A DNA stretch of 64,000 nt from assembly GCA_964187785.1 (NCBI GenBank), contig OZ076409.1, positions 51,090,001 to 51,154,000 of the forward strand, given 5' to 3'. The notes below the pieces were generated by a model that saw only the letters and a list, made by a program, of their open reading frames with translations, did not search any database and was not told the DNA's origin. The translations under genes and the position numbers were made by a program. Shown here piece by piece: positions 20,681-59,869 of this stretch. Each line of letters starts with the position of its first letter. Position 1 is the first letter of the stretch. The stretch is from Amphiscolops sp. MND2022 (Eukaryota).

Positions 20681-20710
20681 TAAAAGTGTGCATTTTAAGT
20701 TCAGTCAAAA

Positions 20711-20893: not shown

Positions 20894-20894
20894 T

Positions 20895-22827: not shown

Positions 22828-22828
22828 A

Positions 22829-34808: not shown

Positions 34809-37490
34809 CCAGGGTGTTTGATTATCTCGAAACGTTGAAAAAGATTACAGAGAATGCCTAAAAACGTACTTTCTAGTTTTTTTGTGCTGGTTTAGATGTT
34901 TTTTTTAGACTAGTTCAGAGTTGACTAGTTGTATGAGCACACTGGATGACTACTTGATATTTTGTGGATTTTTTTGGATGATCTAATTTCTAAGAGTCCA
35001 AAATTTTCACAAAAACAGTCCAAAAACTAAAAACGATCTGAAAATGGAAAAACTCTAAAACTTTCAAATGTTTTGATTCTTTTTTGAAACTTTCTTCAAC
35101 AAATCTTCTCACATATTTCTTTAACGTCCAAAGTCGGCGCTATACCTAAAGCTCAAAAAACGCGAAGTTTACAAAATTGTAAAAAGGGGGACCCTTTCGA
35201 CTTTTTGAAAATCCAGTTTGTTGCAAAGTATCAAAAAATTTGAAGGGAGAGCCTTTGGCGACAAAAAATCGAAAAACAAATTCGAACAGTGCCGAAAACA
35301 ATTCAAAGGGGGACCCTGTAGTCCTGTCCGGTTTTGTATCTTTCGTTAAAAATTGAGTACACGAAAGCGGGACCCTTTGCAATAACTTAGATTAATTTCC
35401 TCTAGCCGGTCCAGTAGTTTAGTAGTTCTGTAAAAAAAAGTGTCCACTACGCATATATTCTGTTGTCTGACGAAAAAAAAACTTGCCACTGTAATAGTTG
35501 GGCTCATTTTGATAAAATGCGCTGACTAAAACAGAACTCTGGTTAGTTCATTTCTTCTTCGTGGAACTTTCTGGACTGAAGTAGAGAGGAAGGTAACAGA
35601 ACTGTTCGTGGATATTGAGCAACTTAGTTACAACATCTTGATCAAGGCAGAATTTGTTTTTTTTCAACGTTTACACCAGTTTTCTCTAAGTGATGTCTAG
35701 GTTGAAATTTGATGCTACCTTTTTGTGGATGACACGCGGTTTTGTTTGTACTGAATTGATTTGTCCATTTTCGTTATCAATTGTTGTTTTTCAAAACAAC
35801 TGTAACGGCAAGCAGTCGCCGTTGCTTCTTCGTCCGTGAAGACGGTGGAACCTATGACATGGATATTTGCCGTGACAGGCGCCCAATAGCTACAAGTCCA
35901 TTTTGTCTCCCGCAGTTAAACGTGTCCTGTAAAACTCAGAGTCTGAATCTTTAGAGTTTTGAGGGTTGATTGTTTGCTTTGCAGTTGAGGCTACTAACTT
36001 TAACATCCTTTTCTGGTTTTCAGTTAGTATTTTCTCCAGGTCTGACATCATTTCCTCATTTCCTGCCTAAGTGACGTTCTGATCTCATTTAGATTTCCGG
36101 TGTGAAGTAGATCTGCTAGATATTTCTGGTGAAGTAGATATTTCCGGTGAAGAAGATATTCTGTATCGGGAACTGGATTTTCGAAAGTGTTGTTTCCAAA
36201 TGGAGAAGTTTCAAATTCACCAGAAGCTGGTTGTTCAACAGCTTTCCTTTTCTGACTTCGGTTTATCATTTGGTTAGAAAACAGAGCGTTTTCAAAGACT
36301 TTTGAAGTTTTCGACGGAATCGGGATGATCTGACAACAGAGCAGAAACAACTGAACTTCTATTTTTTATTAAAAAAAACTTTTTGTACATTCCTATCACC
36401 ATTTGTTTCTCACCTGAAAATTCCTAGATATCGAATTATCAAACTTGTTCCAAACAATTACCGATTGACTCATATTATCATCTTATTTCAGTCCGACGTC
36501 GATAAATCCGCTATGAAAGCTATGAAAGCTAGGTAAACACAGCTTGAGAGAGACCTTCTGTCAAGCTTTGGAAATCATCCCAATGCTCTAACTAGTGTTG
36601 TCACCAAAGCCGTTTCTTTTGGTTTGAGCGCAGGTGCATCTTTCTAATTATGACGTCAGTAGTTTGATTAGCAAGCGAAGGATAGTATTGGATTTGTTAT
36701 AATTCGCGACAAGAATGTTACAAATATTTGTTTAGATTGAATACTTGCAATCATATTAATTTCAATAGTCATCCCACTCAGTCCTATTATGCTATAATTT
36801 TACCGTTTGTTTGATTATTTCAGGTCAAATGTTGCCCGCGAAATTGTGGATGAAGTTGGTTCAGTGTTGCAGGTTGGAAAATATACAGTTGTGTTTTCCT
36901 TCCGAACATGTTTTTGTAATGTAATCTGTGGATTTATTTGAATGTTAACCTAGAAGAGGACGGGAAAGTTGGATGATTTACGCCGGAAAGTTGATGAAAC
37001 GTTTCACTAAGCAACGTTTTATGTCAAGCTTACAACAATCGTTTATCGTTTTGAAAAAATGTTCCTCCGGTCTATTTAGCTGGGTTGTAAAAAACTTGGC
37101 GCTGAGTTAAAATTTTCCGAGTTTGCCTTGCCCGAGTCCTGCTACTCTTGGATGTATTCTGTGTTGGCAGTATGTACATAAGTCGGGAGCGGACTGTGGC
37201 ATCAGGCAATTACAACAATCAGTCTTTGCGAGACTAGCTTTTAACTAATTGGATCTTCGCACGAACTTCACGTTTTTGCCGACTGATTTTTCGTGTTCTC
37301 CTCCGTAATGATAGCGATTCTTGTCCTCTACGATTCGCGGAACAGGTCTTTGAGCACACTTTGCGGAGTATGACCAATGTTTGTAGTTCCTCTGATTCGA
37401 TTGATTTTTTTAGTCATGTCTCAAATTTTGATGACTTGATGATGTGACAGGGGATTGTTACAAACTCCTCCCCGAGGTCTTTGCAGTCTG
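34809..37490. repeat. Tandem segmental duplication, copy B (lacks ~1.04 kb equivalent to ~32650-33687)
   Basis: Direct alignment by eye; deletion junction at ~36511-36531. Confidence 0.92.
35801..37462 (-). mobile_element. Duplicated, internally deleted copy of the same LTR
   Basis: Same termini within duplication copy B. Confidence 0.6.
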
Positions 37491-37547
37491 GTTTTTGCTG
37501 TCTGGTCTTTGCTGTCTTTGCCGAGGTCTTTGCTGTGTCATATATCA

Positions 37548-40188
37548 TCTTCGGATATATTGTTGAATAAAAAACAACTCTAAAAATTGAGAATTGTAGT
37601 GGGCGCCTACTTATGTAACTTTAAAAGTAGACCGATTTTTCAAATGAATACGGTTGTTACATCCGCCTAATTCGTATCGCTATGAACCAAATAAAAGTAC
37701 AAATATTGAGAAATACGAATTAACGGGAAGATTTTACATTGGTCGTCGCAAAATGGGGCTTTCAAATACATACGAATAAACTAAAATCCAAATGCGATTT
37801 AACCGGAGTTGACAGTAGTGACCCTTAGCAAGAAATTGGCGAATTTAGCATTGAAAAATACCAAAACCAGAGCCGCATTAGGCCGGTAAAGGTAGTCCAT
37901 TAGGTAAAGGAGTCGGATTAGGCCATCTTCCTTCTGATTTGCAGAGAATCCCAGTCATACGAGTTTGATGAAATTGTACATATTAGGCACTTATATGTTG
38001 TAGAAAGACTCCATAAAAGTTCTTTCAAACCGCAAAGAGTATGAGAAAATGGAACAAATCCATCACTGGCTATATTTAGGCTGTTTCTCGGATCCCAGTT
38101 ATACGATTTTGATGTCATTGCGCACGCAGGAGCATCTTTGGGTGTAGAATGACTGCAAAATTTTGAAAATTTATGAAAATCGTAAGGACACGTTTTCAGA
38201 AATTTTAAATTTTCATTGAAAGGTCGGGAGATTGAAATTTCTTCCGACTCCTAAAAATTATCCCAAAATGGCATCGCAGACATATATCTATCATTCCGTG
38301 TTTTAGCTCCAGGGTACGTATATATAGCTTCCAATCTACCAGTCCAACTGAGTTAGAATAGAAGATCATAAGAGAGCTTATAACTTTGGAGCAGCAGATA
38401 GCCGACCTCGTCAACTCATACCAGGAGGAGTGTAAGAAGAACACAAAATACGAGCGCTACTTCTTGTACGAAATTTCAGATTCGGGGGAAGACGGCAGTA
38501 CTTCCACTGAAAGTTCGTCTGTGGGCATGGGAGAAGAAGAAACTCGGAAAATTCTCAAAAACCATGTTAGAGATAATGAAGAATTCAGCGACTTGGACGA
38601 AAAGCTGCGTTTGACGCAAAATTCAATAGCAGAAAAAAGTAAGGAGATTGAAGCTATTAGATCTCATTTTGAGAATAAAGACAGCGATGATGCCACGAAT
38701 CAAAAAGAATTTCCTCTGGAAAAGTATATGGATGCCAAAGATTTGAAAGCACGCTTGTTTAAGCAAAGAGACCGCTTAGAAGGTACAAGTCGCGAAATAC
38801 CCCCTCACAGAAATGTTACAACAGTGCAAAGCTTGAACGTAGTGACCGTAACGGAGGAACACTACTCACCAAATAGCTCAGAAGGGACAACAATGTATTT
38901 AACGACAAGTCCGAGCAGCAAAGGCAGTCGAAGTAGCTGGAGGATGGACCTTATAAACGGACGAAATTGAAACGAAGAAAAAATCATGAAATAATGTGTA
39001 TTGAAATTCAATGTATAAACAAATTGTAATATGTTGTGCATAATAAATTCTGATCTTTAAAAATCATGATAACTTCCTATTCGATAACCAATTTGATAAT
39101 CAAGTATTCCTTCTCAATCATCAAAATGTATTGCATTTCTTTTCAGACAGTTGTTAAAATTGCCATTAGTTTTTTCTTTCAGGGGAGGCCCAAGAGAGGT
39201 TTGAAAAAAATTCATCAAAAAGACACTGTGGTATAATGATTTGACATAACATCTTTTGGGTGAGTGTTTCAACTTAGCTGTTGTATGCACACTCGCCCTC
39301 GCCGTTAAAAGTCCAACTCACACTCGATCGTCCCTCCCGGTAATAGTTTTCTTCTGTTCGAACACGCTTGAATATATGGCAGTTTTACAAGACCAGAATT
39401 TTTATTTGTGTATTACAAATCGTTGGATCTTAGCCGTTATATAATGCGCATTACTACTAAAAGACTGAATTAATTGTAGTCAACACAAAAATACTAAAAG
39501 ACTGAATTAATTGTAGTCAACACAAAATTACTTGAGGATACTTCGCTCGGTACTATGCCTGAGAGGATGTTGCGCCCTTAAGCGTCAAATAGACCATGTT
39601 GAGTCTTCCATTGCGGCAACAGTGCACGAGGGAAGGCTGTCGTGAATTATGACAATCCCAAATGGGTGCATATCTTGAACGTCAGTTTTTTGACCTTACC
39701 AATGAATTTTGGCGTAAATCGGTCCTTCACTTGATGAGGTTTTCACTATTTATGTATACGGGGACCGCTACTGACACTGCAAGGAGGCTCTGCAGCATGC
39801 AGCGATCCGGCACTATCTCATCTTTCAGTTATAAAATTGCCCCTCTGAACTTTGGGCCATCATTACCGTTACAGACCAACATAGTTTTGCCTCGCACGGT
39901 CCCCATGAAAAAAGAGAAAAAGCGGAATAAAATCCATCAAAGGACAATCTTAAGACCTCTTTCTTTCTTAGTCTCTGGTATTATCTTCTGCCCATATTTC
40001 CATAGGTAGTTGGAGACTCAATTCCCATTAAAACAAGAAAAGCCGGGAACGGCCCAAGTCGGCGCCATAGCTAAGGCTCGAAAATAGCAAAAGGACTTCA
40101 AAGTGTCAAGTATTCTCTTCTACAGTACCCGCATTAGGAAAAAATTCAAAAAGTTTCCGAAATGTCTTTCGAAATGCTTTTTGGTCTC
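37548..40188. repeat. Inverted segmental duplication, left copy (continues at 55477-55608 after the LTR insertion)
   Basis: Reverse complement of 57131-59869. Confidence 0.92.
38386..38970 (+). CDS. Hypothetical acidic/coiled-coil protein (start uncertain, may be spliced)
   Basis: 194-codon open frame in AT-rich DNA, also open in the inverted copy with mainly synonymous differences. Confidence 0.5.
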   Translation: MEQQIADLVNSYQEECKKNTKYERYFLYEISDSGEDGSTSTESSSVGMGEEETRKILKNHVRDNEEFSDLDEKLRLTQNSIAEKSKEIEAIRSHFENKDSDDATNQKEFPLEKYMDAKDLKARLFKQRDRLEGTSREIPPHRNVTTVQSLNVVTVTEEHYSPNSSEGTTMYLTTSPSSKGSRSSWRMDLINGRN

Positions 40189-42371
40189 TGTCACAGTCCG
40201 CTCCCTGCTGGTGTACGTACTGCTAGCATGGCATTCGTAAACAGTCAAAAGGAATGGGACATGGCTACTCCCAGGCGCAGTAATTTGTTAGTAAAATCTT
40301 ACTTACGGTGCAGTCTAACAGCTAAGTGGTAAAATTAAGTAAGAAGGTCGACGTACGCGCAACGTAAACTAGCAAAAATGATTCTTAGATAAAATGAAAC
40401 TTCCGGTTTAGAGTTTTCATACACAACGAGTTCATCATTGATTTCCAGTTTCTTCTGTTAAAGATTTCATACCGATCTAAATATCAAAGTGAAAACATTC
40501 CTCATTCTGGGATCATTTTCTTTCCTCTCCACACTGAAATGAAAACACCAAGAACATTATTTAATTCCGCAACCCCAACGAAATACATACGATCTAAAAT
40601 GAAAAGGACATAAAATTATTACAAAGGATTCGTTTTCAGTATTTGAAATAGCTACAAAAGCCCACTCAATTTACTGTGAAGTAACTTGAGTGAGCTCTTT
40701 TAGCGCTATGGCAACGTCACTCAAGCCAACAAAATACTGGTGATTCTAATTTATGGACCAATAGGATCACAGTAATAACCAGCTTATTTGCGCTCAAGCT
40801 AGTGAGAATCGTTTTAGTGACGTCATTAAGAATGAATGTAAGAATGGTGGTTGCTCCGCTCTAACTCTACCAAACAGCTAGCTTGCTATAGCTAATCTTA
40901 ATACGTACGTCAACACTACGTCACACTTTAAGGTTTAAGGAATCAAAGAGATGATTTCTAATGATACGCTTCGTAATTTTTATTTAAGAATAGATATCCA
41001 ATACGTTGATTTTTAACTTTCAACAATAAAAAAACGAGACTGTGCCGTAAGCGAAAGATTTTAAAAGTCAAAACTCCAATTGGATTTACATTGTGTTTGG
41101 CCAAAGCCTATTTTCGTTGTAATCTTGAAATAGCGTAGACAGAACGTCAAGTGTAACTTACATTTCACATAGATCAATCACAGTACAGTTTCTTTTACAC
41201 TCACATAATAATGACGTTAGGTCAACGCTATTCTAGATAACCCCATGTATTGTTTTAGCTACTATAATTGTATGATATGCTTAAATCTGGAGTACCAGAG
41301 AAGAATTTATGTTTTGATTTTTGGTTTTGTTGAATTATAGAATTGCCGAGTTTGATGTATTGAGTGATGTTAATTCTACATTTGTTATTTGTCGAAATAT
41401 GTACGATTTTGGATGCTTGTTAAAGTTGTAGATTGGAAACCGATCAATCGGAAGTCTTAGCATCATTTCGTTCCTCCATAATAGCCAAAATCAGTATAGT
41501 TGACAGCGTCTCAGTTGCGTCGTCATATTCGTTAGTCATTTATTTCACCGCGTTTTCCAGTAGGTTTTCGCCTAGGTTCTGACTAATTGTTCATGCCGGC
41601 GTACCTTTGTCGATAGAATATTCAAGCAGACTTTTATTTTGCCGCCTTTTGAAAGCAAAACAGGAAGTAGTTGTGAATGAACAAAAATGTTTTCAACAAT
41701 TGTGACGATCATGTGACGCTGTTAGGAATTTCAAATCCTGATTTATTGACATTGGGCTGAAACAATTTGAATCATATAGGATTTCTTATGAACAAACCCG
41801 ATTTTTGCGATTCCTAGGAATTTTTAGGTGAGGAACAAATGATGCTAGGAAGGTATATATAGTTGATGCAATTCTAAATATTCAGTTTGATAACTTGTAT
41901 TGTTTTGAAATTGATAACGACAAAGTTCCGTGAATCTTTCTTTACTAAATTCACTGTTCTTCAAAAATCCAATATTTTCCTTCTTCCCGAAAATGATAAC
42001 GAGAAGCCAGAAAAGAAAGGCCGTAAATGAGTTGGTGTCAGGAGAGTTTGAGACTTCTTTAACTGAGGATAACCTAGCTGAAAACTTAGTTCCCAGCTGT
42101 AGCAAAACCACTAGAACTGAGCCTGAAGATCTGAACGAGCTAAAAGCGTCCTAGAGAAAGGAGATTTTGTCTGATCTATCAAAAATACTAGCTGAAAACC
42201 AGAAGGAAATGTTCAAGTTAATAGCACCACTGAGTAAGAAACGAGCAGTTTCGTTGGAAAACCAGGATTCTGACTCCGAAGTTGAAAATACCCCCGTTGC
42301 TCGAACGTCAACTCCTGTTGAAACAGTAACTGCGACTAATACCAAAACAACTCCGGTCAATAGTCGTAACA
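40189..42371 (+). repeat. 5' LTR (2183 bp)
   Basis: TGTCACAG...CGTAACA; direct repeat of 53607-55476. Confidence 0.93.
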
Positions 42372-43406
42372 TGGTGACAGGAGTCCTCCATGACTCCACC
42401 AATCAACCCACTGAAAGACCGAAACGCATGCAAAGCGAACACTCAAAGGACCGTCCCTCCACATCGAAAATCCTGTTCGCACCACAACCGCAATTATTCT
42501 CACTTACAAATCCAAAATTCATTTCCGATGCCAAAAGCACTCACCGCTTCGCTTCCAGTCTTCGACGGTAAGTCCGAAAAGTTTGAACTTTTTGAGGACC
42601 TATTCCGAAACAATATTAAAATGTATCCCCACCTAACTGAGATACAAAAAACCAATTATTTCCACTCATTACTCCGAGGAAACGCGCTACAAGCGTACTC
42701 TGCAACCTAGACGACACTAAAAAAGATAACCTGGAAGAAGTTATAACGGCCTTCAAACGTCGTTTTGGCGACTTCCAATCAGCAGCCAAAGTCAGATGTT
42801 AGTGGGACGCGTTGCATTTTGACCCCACCAAACAGAAAGTTCATGAATTTCTCGACATGTTGCAAAAAACTGCAAAAGAGGCGTTTGGACTAGAAGCGCA
42901 AAAATTCATCGACAAAGCCATATACGCTAAAATGCCGGATCACGTCAAAAAGATCCTCAATAGCGTCTACTTAGAAGATAAACCCTATAATGACATAGTT
43001 CTGCATCTTGAATGAGAGATGCGATTAAATGGACTAGGAGCGCCCGATGAAACAACCCTAGTCCCCCTCAACACAGTAGACGCAGTCGTGACGGACGATA
43101 AAAAAAGAACAACAACCAAGAGGTTTTTGTTTCCACTGCGGCAAATACGGCCACTACAAAGCACAATGCAGGAAATTTCGAAGAGAGATATACTACGCAA
43201 CCAGATCGGGCAACTCAGACACGAATCAAGGAGAGGTGTCGAAACCCAAATGCGACACCTGCGGGAAAACACATAAAACTGAAAACTGCTCGGATGGGGC
43301 CAATGCCGCCAACGACCCACGGAAGAAAAGACGCGAATTCACCAACCCAACCAACAAAATCAACGAACAACCAGTACCTACCCCAGCACCTCAGTCAAAA
43401 AACTAA
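41993..43406 (+). pseudogene. gag: gag (stops and frameshifts), starting inside the 5' LTR
   Basis: MITRSQKRK start; capsid-like LPVFDGKSEKFELFEDLF; zinc knuckles CFHCGKYGHYKAQC (~43128) and CDTCGKTHKTENC (~43251). Confidence 0.85.
42372..42384 (+). other. Primer binding site (tRNA-Leu-like)
   Basis: TGGTGACAGGAGT immediately after the LTR CA; resembles the complement of tRNA-Leu 3' ends. Confidence 0.7.
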
Positions 43407-43445
43407 GATCGCCGCGCCTACGCTTTGGGGAAACGGTAGACGCGA
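43397..43445 (+). other. -1 programmed ribosomal frameshift signal (gag-pol)
   Basis: In-frame A AAA AAC immediately before the gag TAA, followed by stem CGCGCCTAC...GTAGACGCG; the -1 frame is open downstream. Confidence 0.7.
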
Positions 43446-46400
43446 GGGCATACACATTCGAAGACCCTCCAAACAGATACGAAGAAGATTTCACGACTGA
43501 GTGCAACGAAGAGCCCACACAAGACTGGCAACGACGATGGAACGTCGGAATGATCCTCACACATAATGCTCGACACCCAGAAAATCCAACACCACTACCC
43601 CAATGGATAACAGAGTCGCCCGACAACTATGCGACACTCAAGAGACCACTGCCAGAATCAAAAACGTAACGAATTTACATAGATGACAGAGACTACAGAT
43701 GTGACCCTTGGGATGAATCAACCATCTACGACACAAGTAAACTCTCTTTCAAAATACAGGTTCCAAACCCCCAAGCCCAATCCACAGAGATCACAAATTT
43801 ACCATCACCACCGTCTCCAATCCTAACAAGGACAACGCCGTCCCCGACAGTACCCGTCACTATCACGTCCACGCCAATAGACGCCGAAAACATCATTTGC
43901 ATCGAAGATAAAACCATATGGTCACGACAAACGAGACAACAACAAGAAAACACCACCTCGCCCTCACCACCAACACAAACTCCACCAGCCACAGCAATGA
44001 CCGTTGAGGACGAAGGAACAACGGAATGCCCCCTAACATTACCTGAAGACTTAGACGTCATCAAAGAATTCATCCAGCACGACGAGGAACATGACTACAT
44101 CCCATTAATGTCTGCAGTCGCACTCGAAAAGAAAAAGAGAATGCTTTTCCTACCAGTTGACTTCAACTCTGTCAAAATCGATGCGTTAGTTGACTCCGAC
44201 GCATATATCAACGCTATCAGCGAAAGAGACGCTGAACGTCTCCAACAAAATGCTAACCAATGCATAATCAACAAAGCACCCTCGCCACCCTTCAAAGTAC
44301 AATTTGCTAATGCTGACCTAGAACAACCACGTGCGACGTACACACTACGCTTCAAAATCGGAGACTACGCTTTCGAAGAAACGTTCATAGTCATGAACCA
44401 AACGTCATTCCCTTTCATCGGACTAGCTTTCGTACGCAAACATGCCGCAATAATCGACACTGCTCAAGGAACAAAAGACTTCCCAAAAATCCAAATCACA
44501 ATGGCCCTCACCGATGAAAAACAAAAATGCAATCCCAAACCAATCACAGCCAAAACGGAAGCCAAACACACGATCCCAGCACAATCCACCCGTTTCATTT
44601 ACGCATCCATACCGGTGAGCAACGAAAACCCAATAACCGAAACCATTCAACCTCTGCGTCAATTTGATGAATCTTCAAAACTAATGGTAGCCCCGGCGAT
44701 AACTACGGCCAGAGGAAAGAAAGTAGCAATAAAAGTTGCCAACACAACAGATTTCCCATACACAATAGCTACCGACACTAAAATAGCCGAACTACAAATA
44801 CTTAAACCAGAAGAAACAAAAACGATACGTCCTGTCGACATAGCCGCACTCAACCTCCTAACAGAACATGACGATGTCGTGACTTACATCAATGCACTTA
44901 TGCAAGTAGAGCGCCCTGACGACAATGAAGAAAAATTCTGGTTCCCCACGCCCGAGAACCCAGGAAATGAATCAGAACACTCGCCAATGCAACGTAGAAT
45001 CCTCAAAGAACTCCGAGAACTAGCTGAGCTCAAAAAACTAGACCCTACTGAAAACGAACAATCTCGAACCAAATTCCTGTCAATGTTCAAATGGACGGAT
45101 TCACTAATTACAGGAAAAGACCGTGAAAACCTCGAGGCCACAATTGTCGAGTTCCACGACATATTTGTACGCCACAGACTTGACATCGGAATGAACACGC
45201 AATTCAAAGTTAGCCTCACCCCGAAAGATGACAAACCAGTGTACACTCAGAGCCTACCTGTCCCCATCAACCTTAAAGAAAATCTCACAGTGGAATTGGC
45301 CCTCATGCACAAATACGGCATAATAACAACGCTCCCGTTCTCCAAATATGCCAGCCCAATATTTGCGCAACGAAAACCCAACGGCAAACTAAGACTCCTA
45401 GTGGACCTACGGAAGATCAACGCCCTCATTGCTGACGACTACATCAACAACAACCACCCAGTCAGCACCCTCTCCGATGCAGCACAACACCTAGCAGGGA
45501 AGAAACTTTTCTGCAAACTTGACTGCTCCCAGGCGTACCACTGCCTCCAGATGGCAGATCAAAAGTCAGTAGAATTACTTGCTTTTAACTTTGCTAGTAG
45601 GACGTTTGCCTACCGACGCCTGGCCCACGGACTAAGCAGAGCCCTGTCCGCCTTTTCAAGTTTCATGCGGGAAAATCTCGACGCGGTCATCAAAGCAGAC
45701 CAGTGCGCACAGTACGTAGACGACATCGGAATCGCCGCGCTACAACGGAACAACTTATCAAAAATACCAGAGCAGTCTTCAAGTGCATTAGGAAGGCAGG
45801 ATTAAAACTGACCACCGAAAAATGCCACTTCGGCGTCACACAAGTTGAATTCCTCGGAAGAACCATCACTCCTGACGGAATAGCGCTGCAAGACCAAAAG
45901 ATCAAAAATTTCCTAGCAAAAGTTCGCTATCCGAAATCCAAAAAACAAGTTCAAAAATACCTGGGCTTTGTCAATTACTACCGAAACTACATACCACGAC
46001 TATCAGAAACACTCATTGGCATGTACGAACTCCTAAAAGCTGATTCCAAGATTAGGATATCAGAAGATTTTGTGGAAAATTTCAAAGACGTCAACGCTAG
46101 CCTAGCGGAGGCCTGCGGGTTTGCCCTTAGACAACCCATTGAAGGCAAACAATACGTCCTAATGACGGATGCGAGTTTCCGCGCGTCAGGTTATGCCCTC
46201 ATGATTGAAGAGAATGATGAATGCAAGCTACTATCAAAAAGGAAAACTTTTGCACCTGTAGCGTTTGGATCACGGGTCTTCTCCCCCGCTCAACTCAAGA
46301 TGTCAATCTACTGTAAAGAATTTTTGGCCATATATCATGCATTCCTTGAATACAGCCATATTTTATGGGAAACAACGACACCAACCCTCGTCCCAAATGA

Positions 46401-48597
46401 CAACAGGTCAGTGACAAGATTCTTCCAAACCAAAACCATACCACCAGCTCTTTGGGACGCCTGCGATTACGTCCTCCAATTCAAATTCCGTGTCATGCAC
46501 GTAGCAGGATCGCAAAACACAGCCGCAGACTTCCTCTCAAGACTAGAACTTACCCCTAAAGAAAAAGTCCAATTAAAACTACGCGACGACATACTAACGT
46601 CACCAGTGGAAGTCAACCTACAATCATCGGACGTTGCCGACGAAGAACAACTCTTCTTCCTACCGGACGACGAAGAAGAATCTGAACAGGAAATCTTCGC
46701 CCGAAAAGCACTCAGCAAACAACGCGCAATCAACGAAAATGAAAAAGACATCTCACCTAAAGTGTCCGAAGTCACCAAAATACCCCTCAATTCGACAGTC
46801 TACACTTTCGAGGCGATCAAAGAAAGCGCACGAATTAGAAACGAACAAGACGCAGACCCAATCCTCAAAGCGCTCAAACTACGCATACTACACAAAGGAT
46901 ATGACAAACACCTCTCAAAAACAGAACCAAGAGAAAAAAACCTACTCCGCCACGAAGAACGACTTATCATGAAAGACGGAGTACTCATGCGCAAATACTA
47001 GAGTGAAGATGGGACAATCACCCACAATCAAATCATCATTCCGAAACATCTTATCCCAGAACTCCTCTCCACTTTACATGGCAAAACAAGCAAACACCCA
47101 GGAATAACGAAAATGATCCAGGAATGCAGAGCCAAATACTATTTTTCAGGCCTTGCACGGAAAATCAGAGCATGGGTAACCAATTGTCCGGACTGCATAG
47201 CCAATAAAAGAATAGATACGAGACAAATACGACCACAAATGCTAAGCCTAGATGGCAGATTGCCTAGAAGTCGACATACTGCCAAACCTACCGTCGTCCA
47301 GTGGATACCAACACATCATCACGATGATGGACGTCTTTTCACGTTACCTTTTCGCATACCCGACACAGGATATGACAGCGAAAACAGTAACACGATGCAT
47401 CATCGACGTAATGACAATACACTGTTACCTACCATCCGTCATCCTAACAGACAAAGGATCACAGTTCAGATCAGAAGTAATCAACCAAATAGCCCAAACG
47501 TTAAACATACGGATCAGCCATGCCTCAACAAAGCATGCCCAAACAATAGGCATCTTAGAACGGACTCACGCCTCACTAAAGACAGCATTAAAGATATCAA
47601 CGGGAGAACGCCGCTCCATGTGGCACAAATATGTACAAATCGCAAACATGAATTACAACACAAGCAAACACGAAAGTTTAGGCTGTGAACCAACCACAGT
47701 ATTTCACGGTCGCATCCCGTACAATATACTGGATATCAAACTGGGACTCAAGCCAGAATGGAAAAAGGACGCCAACGAAGACCTAACGGATGAATTACAG
47801 AAACAAATAGCAGAAATACACCAAGCCGCAAAACCCAATCTCATGCAATCCTATCTTAAATACAAGAGATACTACGACAAGAAAGCGTCCGCCACACCGC
47901 TCAAAATTAACGACTACTGCTACGTTCTTAACCCGAAAGCAGACAACCAGTCTATGAAATTCGCGTTCAAGGATTGTATTTGGACTGGCCCCTATATAGT
48001 AGTTAAAGTGCTTTCCAACAACAACTACGTCGTACGCCGCACTGGAACACGATATACACAAACCCTCCATAGAATTCGCCTATGGCGATATGTGCCCAAT
48101 CAACGTGTACCTGACGTAACCGTCAGAGGGGAATATTATCTTCCAGACCCAGAGGTTAAAACAACCCATAATGATTGGTACGCGCAAGCTTGGGAACCGA
48201 ATTCGGAGAAGTTCTGTTCGGATCACCCACCGAAACTTCCGCTGAAGAAACTACAATCACAGAAATCAGGAATCTGGATGATGACGACGCAACTAACACG
48301 CAAAACGAATTGGTTAAAACAACCGCTGACACAAATATCGAAGAGGATAAAACATGCTTCGACAGTGCTACGTCATTCAATTTGGACGTCAGTGACAACC
48401 CTTACATCATAAACCCACCGCCCATAACCAGCCCCCCCCCAAAAAAAACTCCGGAATTGCCGCCTATAGTTGTTGGATATAATCCACGAAAAGTCGGACG
48501 ATACAACTTACGACCTAACCCAAAGCCTAACGTGAAACCAGACTTTCGAATGCTTGACTCAGTTACTACGGAGGACTCTCGCCAAACTCAAAACTAG
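43400..48597 (+). pseudogene. pol: pol polyprotein (protease, RT, RNase H, integrase) with stops and frameshifts
   Basis: ALVDSDA (mutated DSG), YASP..LRLLVDLRKIN, KLDCSQAY, YVDD (~45713), LMTDAS, H..H..CPDC, EVDIL / TDKGSQF / GILER; lesions at ~43667, ~45735, 47001, ~47250, ~48195. Confidence 0.95.
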
Positions 48598-48771
48598 TAC
48601 AAAAACAATCAATTGGTCAAACCGAACTGGAGTGGCAACGTAAATTTTGGTTTTTTTCACAAACTACCCTCAAGGCAGCACAATAAATCAATACAACGAA
48701 ACGCATTAGAGCAAAAATAAACTAACTACAACAAATACAACAATCAAACAGCTCAAAAGTCCATCAGTAGT

Positions 48772-51700
48772 TTAGCCTATATGGTGGTAAACTGGAGGAT
48801 CAGGGGTCTTCGACAACTTCTTCAAAATGGGATTTCCAACGGTTGGCCGACGACTGCCTCTACTAGTTGTTGTACCACTACTTGAAGCCCCCTGATTTTG
48901 AACCGGCTTCTTTTTCCCTCCAGACTTCTTACTCGTCGCACTACTTTCCGACAGAACACTTCCACCTGACGTCACAGCCTTCATACTGCGAATCGCAGAT
49001 CCCAAATTGCTCGTAGACTCTCCACGTTTCTCCTGGACACGTCGATTCGCCTTACTACACTCCGCATAAGACACCTCACTTGACTTCTGGCGATCTCCCA
49101 GATAGGAAGAATACAATTTTCTGAAGCGCGACAAAAAAACGTCATATCCTGACCCACAGAAATCATTCCATAGACTGAATCCAGGAGCCACAAATGAAAT
49201 GCCTGCGTCACTAATAGCAGCCCGCACCGCATCCAAGGTTGAATCTGTGAAGAACGACTGATGACTATACCCAGGACTCAACACATAAGATTGCACCAAC
49301 TCCATACACCTGCGAAAGTCCGTCGGACTAATTACGCTGCCACTAAGGTCAATGGTGACTGGAGGACATTTCTTCACCGGCATGCCAACAACCAAACAAC
49401 AGAGCTTGAAAACGCGATACACATGACGCCGGGCCTGGAAACTTTAGTCACGTAGCAGGAAATCAACCACATTGTTCACATCGCTGCCAGATCGCCCAGA
49501 ATGGACGTGTTGACGACGTTTCTCCACGACATAACTACTATACTCTTCCACAGCAGCCTTTGATTCGTCTTTACTCACCAGACCACATACTACGAAAAGG
49601 TGACACAACCCAGCAAACAGACTGAACGCATCATAATCGTCACCTTCCAAAAACAACTCAGGGCAGAAGCTATACAATCCCCTTGAAACATCTGAAGTGG
49701 AACTGACCTTCTCCACAATAACAACAATCAGCTCGTCCAAGAAGTCCTTGCAGCGAACACGAAACGCTTCCACATCGCTTGTCTTCCCTTCCGCCAATTC
49801 TCGTCCAAATTCGTAATTCATGAGGAAGTCACTCATTGCAATGGAAGGAAACTGCCGTACCTTCTCTACACTCATGTATTCTTCCCAAGATTCGATCACT
49901 GGAAGACTCGACAGTTCTTTCGTCTTCAATAGGAGACAGTAGATGAAATTACACAGTTCTCCATATCCATGGAATCCGTAATCGGCACGATTCTGGCGAA
50001 GCTTCGTAAAATTGATGTGGACTACAACACAACGATACCATCACGTCAACGGATGAGAACAAGCAAATTTAACCCCAAAAATTCACTACAATCTACTGCA
50101 ACATGCCAAACATATCCCATTATACTTACACGTGTCAAGAATTAGCCGGAGCAGTCCAAAGCGGAAAACCACCACAGAATCAGTCACCAGGTGCCAATCA
50201 GTCCCACGCATCTAAAACAATAGCACACAACATGACGAGTGACCAATGATGAGACCAATACAAATCTTTATGCAACACCACTAACGCTATCTGCTTTCTC
50301 CTTTGCTTCGAGGAACCCAGTGCTGCGCACGAAAGATCGTATAGTTGGCCATAAATCAATCAGGTCAGTCAGAAGCTCGCGCATGTCCGCAAATCTGACG
50401 GAGCCTTGACGAATGCATTTCCTCAGCAAGGGCTTTCCCTCAGTCCAGACTTCATAAAGAGCGCTCCTCAAGCGCTGCACCACATACTCAACGATTGTAG
50501 TCACTTCCACCATGCCGAAAATGCTCTCATGTGCTCGTCGGACACACTGTAGAAAGGTCTCTTCACCAAACTCGCAAATGACGACAAACTGACGACTATC
50601 GCTGCGATTGTCACTCACCACAAGAAGCAGAGAAGGACTACACCCACGAATACACATGGGGAGCTGAGGAACACCCATACTGCAAATAAAACGCGCTAAT
50701 GGAATAAGCTCAGCATCATGAACCGCCTGATCCAGAGATTGGCAATCGATGCAAATATTCTTCAAATGCTGCTCTTCCCAGTATACGATGTAACAACGCT
50801 CCACATCTATCTCCTTCTCGAAATGTATGCAGTATTCTTTGAAAACAGCGACACTGCCCAGCACAAGACGTAATACACGTGGTGCCATGCCACGACACAA
50901 GAGAGCCTAGAACAAACAAACTACTTCAAACTAGACCACAAGAAAACAGAACTTCAAAATCATACACATTACAGACAACTTACAACAGTCTCAGTCCGAC
51001 TCCACTTGACATTGTATATTGGGTCGCGTTCATCCAGCGTCGCACGGAAATGACCCCATAGACGTCGTAGAAGACAGAAATCGCCACCACTCCGCAACAG
51101 ATCGCCCACACACGACACAAGAGTACTAAAGGGAATGCGTGACTCCACACGAGCATGTTTAGGAGCCAAATTCTCAGGGAATGGGAAGCCCTCAGCTAAC
51201 TCCACGAACGGCCGAGAACCATATTTCACACGCTGTGCATCCGTCAAAGTCATGGGTTCAAGCAACCGATTGTAAATTGGCAAGCTCATATGGACTCGAT
51301 AGGTCACGTCTTTGAACCAGTGACCATCAGAACGGAAATGACGCCAAAATTCGCCGGAACCTCGAGTTACCATCTTCACATCGCGATGGCACACTTTGCA
51401 ATAAAAATGGGTACCAGCACCGGTTGAAGATCCTGACACAAAATCAGGAAATACAGGATTTAACGTCAGCATCTCGCGTCGTAGGGCATTTTGGCTACTG
51501 TATTTCCGAACTCGCTTCTTCGGCTGTAATTGGCTCTCCATTTTCTCGGACAGCTCATTGAAACCTACGACAACAAAGGACTGATGCAGAAACTCTCATC
51601 AACAAAAGAGTAACCCCCCCACCGAAGTCAAAATATGACGTTTACATACCGGCTTGAATTGTCTCTGTTGTCCGGCTTCCCAGTTCATTCACGAGTTGTC

Positions 51701-52566
51701 GGCTCAATTGACTTACGAACACTGGACTCACAGCCACCTTGTCAGACGCTCGCGGCATTCCATCGTCACCTACAAAGTACCACAGTCTCAAAGATCAACC
51801 AAAACGAAAGGAAAACTGAAAATACCACAAAACTAACTACTCCAAGCGCTCAATACGCATTCCTGAAGATTATCGAAAGACCAATCTCCGCCGCGCTTGG
51901 GTGGTGTCCTAAATTTCACAGAATGCTTCCTAAGGGGAAACACAGAGAGACCTAAAACAACAACGGGAACACCACGTCACATACCCACGAAAATGCAAAC
52001 CAACGTTAAATAACAATTCCAACCTTTCCCAGTCGACGTGGTGGGCGCGTCCACCCCATCTTCAATTGGTACTTCTTCTTCTTCACTTGTGGGGGGACTA
52101 ATCTCGCCTCCGCGAGAAATGACAGCAGGTTCAAGAATAGTGCAGCTAGTTGCAACTAGCTCAGGACTGACAGTTTTGAGGGCAGCAGAAACATCTTGCA
52201 GTGACGGAGCTACTTCAAGACTCTCTTCAATCTGCTAGGGCAGAATGGTAGACACAGCTGGCAACGAAGCATTGACGGTATGTCCAGTAACAGACTCCTC
52301 TTGAGGAGGGAATAAAAGAGCAGGTTGAGCTACTGAAAATCAAGATCTGGTTCAGACGCGTCAGAGTTACGGGTAAGACTAAATTGGCTGATCACCAAAA
52401 AGAACAAGTCTAACTGCCCATGGTAGTCAGAAAGATTTTACCAAACTGAAGAAGGACGGACAAACACCGTCTCCGTTTGAATATCGCAACCAGAATGATT
52501 GTACACTGTCTCATTTCCACTGATAAACCCAGCCCCAGAAGGAACAACAGCATCATCAGCGTCCAT
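48772..52566 (-). pseudogene. Antisense 8-exon gene inside the retrotransposon (~1080 aa; BED-like Zn finger; possibly hAT-transposase-derived)
   Basis: Exons 52566-52442, 52387-52024, 51951-51838, 51769-51650, 51564-50984, 50906-50286, 50211-50130, 50021-48772; GT-AG introns of 54-108 bp keep phase; FYCKVC..FWRHFRSDGH motif; premature stop at 49444, stop and frameshift in exon 2. Confidence 0.75.
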
Positions 52567-52714
52567 TGAGAAGTGCTGAGGAAATTTGCAAGGAAATCTA
52601 AAAAAGAGAGAATCAATTACAAAAACAACACAAAAGGAACTTGCAACCCGGAGAAAAACAATCAAACTACGCATCAATAAAAGGAAAAAAGAAAAAAGTA
52701 GAGTGTTACTAAAA

Positions 52715-52900
52715 GAAATATGACGTCATTATTCCGTGACTTGTAAAAGAAAACTCGATGACGTCATGACGTCATCGATGAAGGAAGAGATGAAATTTAT
52801 TTTCCTATTCGCCTAGCCAATCACAGCGCTGATGGAAACAGATCGTTTCCAATACTCTTAGGCGAACCGGAATGAAGACGAAAGTTGACCAATAGGAGAA
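52715..52900. promoter_or_regulatory. Putative bidirectional internal promoter (3x CRE/ATF, 2x CCAAT)
   Basis: TGACGTCA at 52721, 52759, 52767; CCAAT at ~52817 and ~52889; lies between divergent ORFs. Confidence 0.55.
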
Positions 52901-52999
52901 AGACAAAATACGAAGGAATTGAAACTGACCTTTTTCATTTGACACTCAATCAATCGTACGATCAAATCGATTTAGAACCGTCAAGTTTCAGCAAATAAA

Positions 53000-53701
53000 A
53001 TGAACAAACTTTCGCTTGTTATCGACATTTCTTCTGATGAAGAAAACAACCGTTACAGCACGCCCATAAAGACCCTCCCGCTAAATATGGTCGGCAGACT
53101 GGACCTAAGCGACTCTTCTACGGAAGTAATGAGGGGCAGCGAGGCGGATCCCAACTCTTCTACCTTCTCCATCTTTACATTTGAGTCTGACATTTCTCCG
53201 AAGAAACTTAAAATAGGCCCCATCAAGGAGTCTCAGCACGCCAGGGTTACGATTGAACTAGACGTTAATTCAGAAGACGACTACTATGAAGAAGCGGACA
53301 CGCCTAGTCCTCCTTCAGCTGTACAACCTGCTCCTATCTTAAAAGACGTGACTCAAACGTATGGCTACAACAAACAAACTGATGACCCTGTGGAGAAATT
53401 GAACGACCTCTCCGAACCAGAGATTGAACAAATACAAAAGGACTATGGAATAAGCCTCGACAACCCGACGATGAGATGCAATTTTGGCGGGAGAGGCATA
53501 CACTACACATCAAAGAGAATAACGCGTAACAGGAGACAGCCGATTCTTATCGCCAAAGAGTTGCCCCATTGCGGTGGAGTTGTCGCAACCAGATCAAGAG
53601 GCGCCCTGTCACAGCCCGCTCCCGGCTGGTGTACGTACTGCCAGCATGGCATTCATAGACAATCAAAAGGAATGGGACAAGGCTACTCCCAGGCGCAGTA
53701 A
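53000..53701 (+). CDS. Extra 233-aa acidic Ser/Pro-rich ORF overlapping the 3' LTR
   Basis: AAAATG start, uninterrupted; the last ~95 nt lie in the 3' LTR. Confidence 0.6.
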   Translation: MNKLSLVIDISSDEENNRYSTPIKTLPLNMVGRLDLSDSSTEVMRGSEADPNSSTFSIFTFESDISPKKLKIGPIKESQHARVTIELDVNSEDDYYEEADTPSPPSAVQPAPILKDVTQTYGYNKQTDDPVEKLNDLSEPEIEQIQKDYGISLDNPTMRCNFGGRGIHYTSKRITRNRRQPILIAKELPHCGGVVATRSRGALSQPAPGWCTYCQHGIHRQSKGMGQGYSQAQ

Positions 53702-55476
53702 TTTGTTAGTAAAATCTTACTTACGGTGCAGTCTAACAGCTAAGTGGTAAATTTAAGTAAGAAGGTCGACGTACGCGCAACGTAAACTAGCCAAAAATGA
53801 TTCTTAGATAAAATGAAACTTCCGGTTTAGAGTTTTCATACACAACGAGTTCATCATTGATTTCCGGTTTCTTCTATTAAAGATTCCATACCGATCTAAA
53901 TATCAAAGTGAAAACATTCCAAATTCTGGGATCATTTTCTTTCCTCTCCACACTGAAATGAAAACACCAAAAACATTATTTAATTCCGCAACCCCAACGA
54001 AATACATACGATCTAAAATGAAAAGGACATAAAATTATTACAAAGGATTCGTTTTCAGTATTTGAAATAGCTACAAAAGCCCACTCAATTTACTGCGAAG
54101 TAACTTGAGTGAGCTCTTTTAGCGTTATGGCAACGTCACTCAAGCCAACAAAATACTGGTGATTCTAATTTATGGACCAATAGGATCACAGTAATAACCA
54201 GCTTATTTGCGCTCAAGCTAGTGAGAATCGTTTTAGTGACGTCATTAAGAATGAATTTAAGAATGGTGGTTGCTCCGCTCTAACTCTACCAAACAGCTAG
54301 AAGTTCTTTTAAACTCACAACATAATGACGTTAGGTCAACGCTATTCTAGATAATCCCATGTATTGTTTTAGCTACTATAGTTGTATGATATGCTTAAAC
54401 CAGAGAAGAATTTGTGTTTTGATTTTTGGTTTTGTTGAATTATAGAATTGCCGAGTTTGGTGTATTGAGTGATGTTAATTCTACATTTGTTATTTGTCGA
54501 AATATGTACGATTTTGGATGCTTGTTAAAGTTGTAGATTGGAACCCGATCAATCGGAAGTCTTAGCATCATTTCGTTCCTCCATAATAGCCAATATCAGT
54601 ATAGTTGACAGCGTCTCAGTTGCGTCGTCATATTCGTTAGTCATTTATTTCACCGCGTTTTCCAGTAGGTTTTTGCTTAGGTTCTGACTAATTGTTCATG
54701 CCGGCGTACCTTTGTCGATAGAATATTCAAGCAGACTTTTATTTTGCCGCCTTTTGAAAGCAAAACAGGAAGTAGTTGTGAATGAACAAAAATGTTTTCA
54801 ACAATTGTGACGATCATGTGACGCTGTTAGGAATTTAAAATCCTGATTTATTGACATTGGGCTGAAACAATTTGAATCATATAGGATTTCTTATGAACAA
54901 ACCCGATTTTTGCGCTTCCAAGGAATTTTTAGGTGAGGAACAAATGACGCTAGGAAGGTATATATAGTTGATGCAATTCTAAATAATCAGTTTGATAACT
55001 TGTATTGTTCTGAAATTGATAACGACAAAGTTCCGTGAATCTTTCTTTACTAAATTCACTGTTCTTCAAAAATCCAATATTTTCCTCCTTCCCGAAAATG
55101 ACAACGAGAAGCCAGAAAAGAAAGGCCGTAAATGAGTTGGTGTCAGGAGAGTTTGAGACTTCTTTAACTGAGGATAACCCAGCTGAAAACTTAGTTCCCA
55201 GCTGTAGCAAAACCACTAGAACTGAGCCTGAAGATCTGAACGAGCTAAAAGAGTCCTTGAGAAAGGAGATTTTGTCTGATCTATCAAAAATACTAGCTGA
55301 AAACCAGAAGGAAATGTTCAAGTTAATAGCACCACTGAGTAAGAAACGAGCAGTTTCGCTGGAAAACCAGGATTCTGACTCCGAAGTTGAAGATACTCCC
55401 GTTGCTCGAACGTCAACTCCTGTTAAAACGGTAGCTGCGACTAATACCAAAACAACTCCGGTCAATAGTCGTAACA
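53607..55476 (+). repeat. 3' LTR (1870 bp; lacks ~305 bp of 5' LTR 40882-41186)
   Basis: TGTCACAG...CGTAACA followed by TSD GTCTC. Confidence 0.93.
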
Positions 55477-56930: not shown

Positions 56931-57130
56931 NNNNNNNNNNNNNNNNNNNNNNNNNNNNNNNNNNNNNNNNNNNNNNNNNNNNNNNNNNNNNNNNNNNNNN
57001 NNNNNNNNNNNNNNNNNNNNNNNNNNNNNNNNNNNNNNNNNNNNNNNNNNNNNNNNNNNNNNNNNNNNNNNNNNNNNNNNNNNNNNNNNNNNNNNNNNNN
57101 NNNNNNNNNNNNNNNNNNNNNNNNNNNNNN
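56931..57130. other. Assembly gap (200 N)
   Basis: Run of N. Confidence 1.
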
Positions 57131-59869
57131 TTTTTTCCGCAAATTTTTTTAATGTATCCAAAGGGTCTCCTTCATTTTTTTTCTATTTTGCAAAAGAATG
57201 GATGTTCAAAAATTCCCAAAGGGCCCCCTTTTACATTTTTCGGCACTATGTGACCGGAGACCAAAAAGAATTTCGAAAAAATATTTCGGAAATTTTTTGA
57301 ATTTTTTCCTAATTCGGGTACTGTAGAAGAGAATACTTGACACTTTGAAGTCCTTTTGCTATTTTTGAGCCTTAGATATGGCGCCGACTTGGGCCGTTTC
57401 CCGGCTTTTCTTGTTTTAATGGGAATTGAGTCTCCACCTACCTATGGAAATATGGGCAGAAGATAATACCAGAGACTAAGAAAGAAATGTCTTAAGATTG
57501 TCCTTTGATGGTTTTTTTTCGCTTTTTCTCTTTTTTTTATGGGGACCGTGCGAGGCAAAACTATGTTGGTCTGTAACGGTAATGATGGCCCAAAGTTCAA
57601 AGGGGCAATTTTATAACTGAAAGATGAGATAGTGCCGGATCGCTGTATGCTGCAGAGCCTCCTTGCAGTGTCAGTAGCGGTCCCCGTATATATAAATAGT
57701 GAAAACCTCATCAAGTGGAGGACCGATTTACAAAGCAAAACGCCAAAATTTATTGGCAAGGTCAAAAAACTGACGTTCAAGATATGCACCCATTTGGGAT
57801 TGTCATAATTCACGACAGCCTTCCCTCGTGCACTGTTGCCGCAATGAAAGACTCAACATGGTCTATTTGACGCTTAAGGGCGCAACATCCTCTCAGGCAT
57901 AGTACCGAGCGAAATATCCTCAAGTATTTTTGTGTTGACTACAATTAATTCAGTCTTTTAGTATTTTTGTGTTGACTACAATTAATTCAGTCTTTTAGTA
58001 GTAATGCGCATTATATAACGGCTAAGATCCAACGATTTGTAATACACAAATAAAAATTCTGGTCTAGTAAAACTGCCATATATTCAAGCGTGTTCGAACA
58101 GAAGAAAACCATTAGCGGGAGGGACGATCAAGTGTGAGTTGGACTTTTAACGGCGAGGACGAGTGTGCATACAACAGCTAAGTTGATACATTCACCCAAA
58201 AGATGTTATGTCAAATCATTATACCACAGTGTCTTTTTGATGAATTTTTTTCAAACCTCTCTTGGGCCTCCCCTGAAAGAAAAAACTAATAGCAATTTTA
58301 ACAACTGTCTGAAAAGAAATGCAATACATTTTGATGATTGAGAAGGAATACTTGATTATCAAATTGATTATCGAATAGGAAGTTATCATGATTTTATAAA
58401 GATCAAAATTTATTATGCACAACATATTACATTTTGTTTATACATTGAATTTCAATATACATTGTTTCATGATTTTTTCTTCGTTTCAATTTCGTCCGTT
58501 TATAAGGTCCATCCTCCAGCTACTTCGACTGCCTTTGCTGCTCGGACTTGTCGTTAAATACATTGTTGTCCCTTCTGAGCTATTTGGTGAGTAGTGTTCC
58601 TCCGTTACAGTCACTACGTTCAAGCTTTGCACTGTTGTAACATTTCTGTGAGGGGGTATTTCGCGACTTGTACCTTCTAAGCGATCTCTTTGCTTAAACA
58701 AGCGTGCTTTCAAATCTTTGGCATCCATATACTTTTCCAGAGGAAATTCTTTTTGATTCGTGGCATCATCGCTGTCTTTATTCTCAAAATGAGATCTAAT
58801 AGCTTCAATCTCCTTACTTTTTTCTGCTATTGAATTTTGCGTCAAACGCAGCTTTTCGTCCAAGTCGCTGAATTCTTCATTATCTCTAACATGGTTTTTG
58901 AGAATTTTCCGAGTTTCTTCTTCTCCCATGCCCACAGACGAACTTTCAGTGGAAGTACTGCCGTCTTCCCCCGAATCTGAAATTTCGTACAAGAAGTAGC
59001 GCTCGTATTTTGTGTTCTTCTTACACTCCTTCTGGTATGAGTTGACGAGGTCGGCTATCTGCTGCTCCAAAGTTATAAGCTCTCTTTTGATCTTCAATTC
59101 TAATTCAGTTGGACTGGTAGATTGGTAGCTATATATACGTACCCTGGAGCTAAAACACGGAATGATAGATATATGTCTGCGATGCCATTTTTGAATAATT
59201 TTTAGGAGTCGGATGAAATTTCGAATCTCCCGACCTTTCAATGAAAATTTAAAATTTCTGAAAACGTGTCCTTACGATTTTCATAAATTTTCAAAATTTT
59301 GCTGTCATTCTACACCCAAAGATGCTCCTGCATGCGCAATGGCATCAAAATCGTATAACTGAGAAACAGCCAGTGATGGATTTTTTTTCGATTTTCTCAT
59401 ACTCTTTGCGGTTTGAAAGAACTTTTATGGAGTCTTTCTACAACATATAAGTGCCTAATATGTACAATTTCATCAAAATCGTATGACTGGGATTCTCTGC
59501 GAATCAGAAGGAAGATGACCTAATCCGACTCCTTTACTGCACATGCGGCTCTGGTTTTGGTATTTTTCAATGCTAAATTCGCCAATTTCTTGCTAAGGGT
59601 CACTACTGTCAACTCCGGTTAAATCGTATTTGGATTTTAGTTTATTCGTATGTATTTGAAAGCCCCATTTTGAGACGACCAAAGTAAAATCTTCCCGTTA
59701 ATTCGTATTTCTCATTATTCGTACTTTTTATTCGGTTCATAGCGATACGAATTAGGCGGATTTAACCACCGTATTCATTTGAAAAATCGGTCTACTTTCA
59801 AAGTTACATAAGTAGGCGCCCACTACAATTCCCATTTTTAGAGTTATTTTTCAACAATATATCCGAAGA
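57131..59869. repeat. Inverted segmental duplication, right copy, with empty gypsy target site
   Basis: Contains a single GAGAC (GTCTC on minus) at ~57257-57261 joining the two flanks of the LTR element. Confidence 0.92.
58486..59241 (-). CDS. Paralog of 38386-38970 hypothetical protein (frame open further upstream)
   Basis: Near-identical translation; TTG here versus TAG in the left copy upstream of the shared part. Confidence 0.5.
   Translation of the reverse strand: MKGREIRNFIRLLKIIQKWHRRHISIIPCFSSRVRIYSYQSTSPTELELKIKRELITLEQQIADLVNSYQKECKKNTKYERYFLYEISDSGEDGSTSTESSSVGMGEEETRKILKNHVRDNEEFSDLDEKLRLTQNSIAEKSKEIEAIRSHFENKDSDDATNQKEFPLEKYMDAKDLKARLFKQRDRLEGTSREIPPHRNVTTVQSLNVVTVTEEHYSPNSSEGTTMYLTTSPSSKGSRSSWRMDLINGRN

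Follow-up and report, generated by a model that had tools for sequence, protein, structure and literature searches.

A probably spliced antisense gene with a predicted hAT transposase fold in gypsy LTR retrotransposons of Amphiscolops sp.

We analyzed a window of 64,000 nucleotides (the whole stretch of DNA under study) from Amphiscolops sp. MND2022 (NCBI GenBank assembly GCA_964187785.1, contig OZ076409.1, forward-strand positions 51,090,001 to 51,154,000), together with related loci in the searched genome assembly of 1.07 Gb. The window contains a 15.3-kb gypsy-type long terminal repeat (LTR) retrotransposon at 40188–55476, flanked on either side by the 5-bp target site duplication (TSD) GTCTC. 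Its Pfam domains follow each other in the order DUF1759 gag, zinc knuckle, protease, reverse transcriptase (RT), RNase H and integrase. With its TG..CA LTR pair, short TSD and gag preceding protease, RT, RNase H and integrase, the element is of Ty3/gypsy type, the host that a preliminary description of the locus had proposed. In intact copies pol is a single 1741-codon frame; in the window copy it ends at about 48412. An eight-exon gene on the minus strand lies wholly inside the interval between this point and the start of the 3' LTR at 53606, also as first described.

The preliminary description had joined the minus-strand open reading frames (ORFs) through seven introns. Six of these stand with the lengths given at the time (72, 68, 85, 77, 74 and 108 nt), and the six downstream junctions do keep phase. 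The first, taken to be 54 nt long, really measures 113 nt (52445–52333), and the frameshift that had seemed necessary in exon 2 is therefore unneeded: it was a mis-call, and the spliced frame of 3198 nt comprises 1065 codons and a stop without any frameshift. Thirty related elements were fetched via matches to either exon 8 or the window DNA, and the splice-site alignment has 29 rows, the window and 28 copies, two incomplete ones being left out. For intron 1 the donor GT is present in 28/29 rows and the acceptor AG in 29/29. GT..AG is kept in 27/29 rows for intron 4, 29/29 for intron 5, 28/29 for intron 6 (plus one GC) and 29/29 for intron 7; among the other dinucleotides, 22/336 GT and 17/239 AG reach 27/29, a background that includes the splice sites themselves. 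Intron lengths vary up to 2.6-fold over the same rows (84–161 nt for intron 4, 76–200 for intron 5, 72–139 for intron 6 and 107–171 for intron 7). Exon 6 measures 621 nt in 26/29 rows and exon 7 82 nt in 27/29. Introns 2 and 3 are conserved among the closer copies only, in a region that aligns poorly, and intron 3 is missing from several subfamilies. We infer from these sequence patterns that the antisense gene is spliced. Exons 5–8 are fully open in 16/29 rows, and every row of the window subfamily (7/7) has some lesion. The window copy is decayed, with a non-GT intron-1 donor and premature stops at 52237 and 49446, lesions common to none of the seven closest full copies (0/7). These had gone unmentioned at first. 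So had several features described below: the apparent exchange of cassettes, the sister clade without introns 5–7, the element conserved in intron 1 and a divergent ORF on the sense strand.

A profile search of 1.84 billion representatives returned 755 matches, among them P0147, an 890-residue single frame that spans exons 5–8. Its relatives in this genome (51 matches) carry exons 5–8 as one frame of 862–918 codons. All ten fetched copies of this sister clade (10/10) lie antisense after pol within gypsy elements, with pol 49–58% identical to that of the window clade; the sister clade is without introns 5–7, yet has 5' introns. Exon 6 matches the intronless family at 99.6% by HHalign, and the window exons match it at 24–34% by tblastn. 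The uninterrupted frame is an independent check on the predicted joins of exons 5–8. In a third clade (pol 62–71% identical to that of the window clade) introns 5–7 are kept at the junctions of 10 copies, with one donor disturbed. With the queries used, the P0093 and P0116 types gave no match in this genome, and the best identity for P0147 is 53%; other genomes therefore probably carry members of the family as well. P0093, P0104, P0116, P0120, P0143 and P0150 form a further lineage, for which two queries gave no match in this genome; its predicted proteins begin where exon 8 does, and their similarity is lost near residue 203, which hints at an extra intron.

The gene-selected sample comprises 51 stretches from the three clades. 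Integrase lies upstream of exon 8 on the opposite strand in 51/51; an LTR pair is present in 45/51, the LTRs are at least 98.5% identical in 37/51, pol is unbroken over at least 1700 codons in 14/51, and 36 elements have an exact 5-bp TSD. Since this first sample had been picked via the gene, we reversed the search and started from integrase alone. Its 30 best matches, three of which had already been fetched (one being the query), all contain the antisense gene. An antisense extra ORF is present at this position in 30/30 integrase-selected and 51/51 gene-selected loci, which answers one of the checks that the preliminary description had proposed. One 20-mer of intron 1 has 375 exact occurrences in the genome, compared to 0 for the control. 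The gypsy lineage carrying the gene is large, young and recently spreading. A further check concerned a dN/dS below 1. In exons 5, 6 and 8 the mean proportion of synonymous differences (pS) is 0.77–0.80, which is saturated, versus 0.25–0.31 for nonsynonymous differences (pN; 9 copies, 36 pairs, between subfamilies). In the 4–5 pairs per exon for which dS can be estimated, dN/dS is 0.11–0.17; for comparison, it is 0.30 in exon 7 and 0.03 in pol. The remaining frames of the same DNA contain many stops. Judged by its sequence, this is almost certainly a real gene under selection, and that selection supports its putative status as an accessory factor.

The predicted structure of the intronless relative P0214, modeled with 64 alignment rows, has a predicted local distance difference test score (pLDDT) of 86.3 and a predicted template modeling score (pTM) of 0.76. 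With this model, Foldseek places Hermes transposase in all of its top 10 positions, with a best E of 5e-4 against 0.053 for the next unrelated match. VIA likewise finds Hermes first (Z 12.4, root-mean-square deviation 5.5, 404 residues; next 6.2), with ISCth4, Tn5 and RAG1 at lower ranks. The model has the RNase H core, helical insertion and C-terminal region of a Hermes-like fold, and the C-terminal segment singled out earlier, FQARRHVYRVFKLCC, falls within the part that aligns to the C-terminal end of Hermes. Identity to Hermes and hAT transposases is 9–11%. The fold makes the hAT origin suggested in the preliminary description very probable. The finger ligands C24, C27, H44 and H50 (Cx2C...Hx5H) are invariant in the alignment; the BED-type finger has no Pfam zf-BED match and an ESM score below 0.9. 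ESM leads below threshold (0.85–0.87) are zf-C2H2_12, zf-BED, FAM200/GTF2IRD2 and Dimer_Tnp_hAT. In strand 189–195, strand 249–251 and helix 628–642, which we take from secondary structure and Hermes numbering to hold the catalytic D, D and E (DDE) sites, no column is at least 70% D/E in both clades. Conserved CxxH or RW motifs were not seen in the alignment. The catalytic site is likely lost, and the product is a predicted transposase-derived DNA-binding protein that does not have the features of an active hAT. A search for host hATs via PF05699 gave 150 matches, 30 of which were fetched; exon profiles found no real match among their 443 ORFs (best E 0.018), and no donor hAT was identified. 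A PF18658 search gave no match, its controls being likewise blank, and the search for longer homologs of exon 8 found none. One sub-threshold Pfam match of DBD_Tnp_Hermes on a window ORF (E 0.021) was rejected, as its position does not fit.

Alleles of the gene can be only ~50% identical in elements whose remaining sequence is 94–99% identical, which is the behavior of a swappable cassette. Between L065 and L077 identity is 93–96% from the 5' LTR to position 10283 and again from 14638; between these positions intron 1 alone aligns. Pol dS is 0.07–0.19 among four such elements, three of whose alleles have mutually saturated dS in the gene. In the E8 tree (trees are unrooted, and this one is a quick version with long-branch warnings), 18 near-identical RT rows are divided among six distinct clades. 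Among the 30 elements with 97–100% identical integrase, 11 carry the query allele; the alleles at the other 19/30 loci are just 48–71% like any of 13 references. Cassette polymorphism is a directly observed pattern, which may have arisen by block exchange via template switching and been kept by balancing selection.

Dead transposases frequently repress, and both the anatomy of the gene and its cassette polymorphism would equally fit a self-limiting repressor or exclusion factor that damps elements of its own type or blocks rival alleles, the alleles being incompatibility types. The antisense retroviral regulators HBZ and APH-2 are also cited as regulatory (PMC11963269, in the available part). 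We nevertheless consider such a repressor unlikely, given that the carrier families are abundant and young (the 375 exact 20-mer copies; LTR pairs at or above the 98.5% threshold in 37/51) and that no allele-matched target motif was found.

Blocks too divergent for internal recombination would mimic cassettes without balancing selection. Together with the hAT fold, this could be read as a nested hAT insertion or a neutral passenger, with allele divergence marking old lineages whose pol has been homogenised. Such an insertion is very improbable: in agreement with the preliminary description, no terminal inverted repeats (TIRs) were found around the gene in six elements (at most one chance 9-mer each) and no 8-bp TSD, the duplications being 5-bp and at LTR ends only. 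The gene also occupies the same position across clades with pol 49–71% identical, and it is under strong purifying selection. Passenger status is refuted; the number of alleles may have a neutral explanation. The insertion sites bear on a further alternative, in which the protein guides the integration complex to particular chromatin by tethering it there, or shields the ends of the cDNA. A transposase scaffold binds DNA ends and the basic patches are of nuclear type, but 36/36 TSDs differ, base preference at the sites is not strong and the flanks share common repeats only. We assign this alternative a low probability.

A conserved acceptor AG at 52599–52598 (28/29 rows) points to an intron in the 5' untranslated region (UTR); no shared upstream donor to match it was found among 12 elements. 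Across the likely promoter (Table 1) a divergent sense ORF has a median dN/dS of 0.18 (41/55 pairs). Its N-terminus includes LVIDISSDEE, which we take to resemble a SUMO-interacting motif (SIM); this SIM-like motif occurs in 26/31 stretches of clade A and 8/10 of clade B, and is not convincing in clade C. In clades A and B the SIM-like N-terminus goes together with an STP motif, a Cys cluster and an RG-rich end; in clade C its place is taken by another ORF, of acidic Ser/Pro type. A sense partner with a SIM-like motif in 34/41 clade A and B stretches, if the motif means what we assume, would accord with a protein-contact antagonist of host defence. The antisense protein would then be a decoy for transposase-derived or chromatin repressors, with allele diversity reflecting a protein arms race and DNA binding being secondary. 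Conservation of the whole scaffold beyond the finger (57–62% column identity in exons 5–8) and the depth of the alleles point the same way. The finger ligands and basic patches are invariant, however, and no partner was identified, so that a decoy seems decidedly unlikely.

Conservation in the antisense gene is highest in intron 1, where column identity is 0.87 versus 0.57–0.62 in the core exons 5–8. This intron contains GACGCGTC in 43/51 stretches, across all clades, compared with 11 matches elsewhere. Before this motif stands a clade-specific 6-nt palindrome (TGATCA in 27/27, AGGCCT in 7/7 and TGGCCA in 9/9) in a predicted hairpin loop; chance alone commonly gives 6-nt palindromes. Palindrome and motif could form a dimerisation signal or a protein site. 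Rfam gave five chance-level matches on 52200–53100 (best E 1.1), and RNA folding of intron 1 (z +1.3 to –2.2) did not establish a structure. Over 14 rows, a stem of 11 pairs has 135 Watson–Crick cells, and G-U cells number 7 versus 6 for the two strands; these near-equal counts mean that neither strand is preferred, and there is little covariation. A kissing loop is a candidate reading at most.

Table 1 Features of the gypsy element and its antisense gene (window coordinates)
Feature	Position	Strand	Remarks
5' LTR (TG...CA)	40188..42371	+	~310 bases (40882-41189) more than 3' LTR
Primer-binding-site-like sequence TGGTGACAGGAGT	42372..42386	+	common to all three clades
gag (DUF1759, zinc knuckle) and pol (protease, RT, RNase H, integrase with p58 C-terminus)	42378..48412	+	broken frames in window copy
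Exon 8	48772..50021	-	helical insertion domain; hAT C-terminal region (predicted) without conserved Glu; basic disordered tail; window-copy stop at 49446
Intron 7, 108 nt	50129-50022	-	GT-AG
Exon 7	50130..50211	-	82 nt
Intron 6, 74 nt	50285-50212	-	GT-AG
Exon 6	50286..50906	-	predicted RNase-H-like strands without conserved catalytic Asp
Intron 5, 77 nt	50983-50907	-	GT-AG
Exon 5	50984..51564	-	basic patch, C2H2 (BED-like) finger, helical DNA-binding region (predicted)
Intron 4, 85 nt	51649-51565	-	GT-AG
Exon 4	51650..51769	-	helical
Intron 3, 68 nt	51837-51770	-	GT-AG
Exon 3	51838..51951	-	basic FPxRK..V.F.TP patch
Intron 2, 72 nt	52023-51952	-	GT-AG
Exon 2	52024..52332	-	low-complexity Ser/Pro/acidic; window-copy premature stop at 52237
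Intron 1, 113 nt	52333..52445	-	holds TGATCA and GACGCGTC; donor broken in window copy
Exon 1, 121 nt	52446..52566	-	ATG at 52566; conserved SG.ET motif
Likely bidirectional promoter	52598..52999		three TGACGTCA (52721, 52759, 52767), CCAAT-type boxes; putative function
Second accessory ORF, ~233 aa	53000..53701	+	runs into 3' LTR; purifying selection
3' LTR	53606..55476	+	~97% identity to 5' LTR

Some 310 bases (40882–41189) are present in the 5' LTR alone; as the LTRs of other copies measure ~2.1 kb, this difference may reflect a deletion in the 3' LTR of the window copy. Between protease and RT there is a weak dUTPase-like match (PF04797, E 0.079; window 43670–45805, residues 335–374). A 2.7-kb inverted repeat (95%; 37548–40187 and 57131–59869) has the element in one of its arms, an N gap at 56931–57130 between them and one coiled-coil ORF of 202–261 aa in each. 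A 15-kb near-perfect palindrome (>99%) at 14452–29597 surrounds an N gap at 21763–21962 and is possibly an assembly artefact; two ORFs are duplicated in it, one of 176 aa that looks exonuclease-like by eye and one of ~250 aa. Two recent direct duplications of 1.7 kb and 1 kb (98%) lie within 30955–37497. At L119–L120 a second gag-pol directly follows the 3' LTR in a tandem arrangement.

The mechanism that we propose starts from what every examined element displays, namely the gene between pol and 3' LTR with apparently fixed splice sites and, in young copies, open frames. Because the introns have antisense polarity, splicing of the genomic RNA would not see or remove them, and reverse transcription would copy them along with the element. 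An ancestral hAT may have inserted antisense in the ancestor of the lineage and lost its ends and DDE while keeping DNA binding through the predicted fold (finger, DNA-binding helices, RNase-H core with helical insertion, and C-terminal region). Elements would exchange the whole segment between the pol stop and the promoter, probably through switches of template within the flanks, which are conserved. Transcription would start from an internal promoter of cAMP-response-element (CRE) and CCAAT type shared with the sense ORF, and the protein would enter the nucleus, bind element DNA and keep copies transcribed. Many alleles may persist because host silencing favours rare ones.

The (predicted) retained DNA-binding scaffold, likely loss of catalysis, allele diversity and precedent of plant DNA transposons lead us to favor, tentatively, an element-encoded sequence-specific DNA-binding activator or anti-silencing factor. 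Several results weigh against this reading or the hAT assignment beneath it. The DDE sites are placed tentatively, by secondary structure and Hermes numbering, and further acidic columns are conserved (E230, D263 and others). The modeled protein is a relative, 24–36% identical to the window exons, and not the window protein; a model of exon 8 alone was poor (pLDDT 47.5) and matched no fold. Pfam and PDB sequence searches gave no hAT match above threshold, the exon profiles miss Ac-type hATs of the host, and the VIA score of 12.4 is close to that tool's caution line for helical proteins. As to function, allele-specific tandem target arrays like those of VANC were not found in 12 elements, where the top 8-mers, for the most part CRE or AT-rich words, have just 4–6 copies. 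CpG observed/expected is 0.8–1.3 in elements and flanks (36 elements), so there is no trace of methylation-driven decay to counter, and the variable LTR segment does not track the cassette allele. A broader picture is possible, though on balance doubtful: a domesticated DNA-transposon enzyme would serve as an interchangeable specificity cassette, with dead hAT alleles on near-identical gag-pol under frequency-dependent selection. It would form a two-gene counter-silencing module with a SUMO-binding partner ORF, undergo intron gain and loss in a reverse-transcribed genome, and have a conserved cis-signal in intron 1.

Antisense extra ORFs are known from the plant elements Retand, Tat, Grande and RIRE2 and from fungal Boty, with origin and function given as unknown in the available parts of PMC7264820 and PMC11963269. 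The former describes them as without similarity to other transposable elements, and in the available part of the latter the word 'intron' occurs 0 times. The Retand-type domain TRP28 (PF04195), of unknown origin and said to be plant-only in the same parts of these sources, has no Pfam match in the window exons or their homologs. Compared with Retand and Boty, the window family has up to seven introns, a full hAT fold (predicted) and swappable alleles. With Hermes and other hATs, and with the DDE-dead ZBED, GTF2IRD2 and FAM200 proteins, it shares a predicted fold of ~400 residues and a putative N-terminal C2H2 finger; unlike them, it is carried by a retroelement, rather than a DNA transposon or a host, and has neither TIRs nor an 8-bp TSD. 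HBZ and APH-2 are spliced. Like the window protein as we interpret it, HBZ of HTLV-1 and APH-2 of HTLV-2 are antisense-encoded nuclear regulators of a reverse-transcribing element (PMC11963269, available part). They are short, LTR-driven bZIP proteins, whereas the window family encodes ~1065 aa of predicted transposase-derived protein, likely from an internal promoter.

Transposases activate cognate copies, and TnpA of Spm derives from a transposase (bioRxiv 10.64898/2026.08.24.746577, in the part available); the VANC anti-silencers of VANDAL elements diverge in target (PMC5735166, likewise). Like these, the window protein is a (predicted) accessory DNA-binding factor with diverging versions; VANC and TnpA, however, belong to DNA transposons and to their own transposase lineage, and the window family is without tandem target arrays. 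The gypsy-borne PMD-A is similarly a silencing-linked domain common to gypsy extra ORFs and DNA transposons, but it is not a transposase fold and is plant-restricted (available part of PMC5418596). The accessible parts of PMC5418596, PMC6431247, PMC8220671, PMC13547354 and PMC11728184 deal with accessory domains of other kinds and mention no antisense gene that is both spliced and transposase-derived. We found no LTR element with a spliced, DDE-dead hAT gene in the literature searched, which excluded Repbase, subscription journals and supplements. The family is a new arrangement within the known class of antisense extra-ORF LTR elements. In it the origin of an antisense extra ORF can be traced, to a class II transposase that a class I element has retained. 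Young copies number in the hundreds, natural alleles occur on near-isogenic backbones, and there are versions both rich and poor in introns; self-regulation of retrotransposons, their evasion of silencing, and the gain and loss of introns in a genome copied through RNA can therefore be put to direct test.

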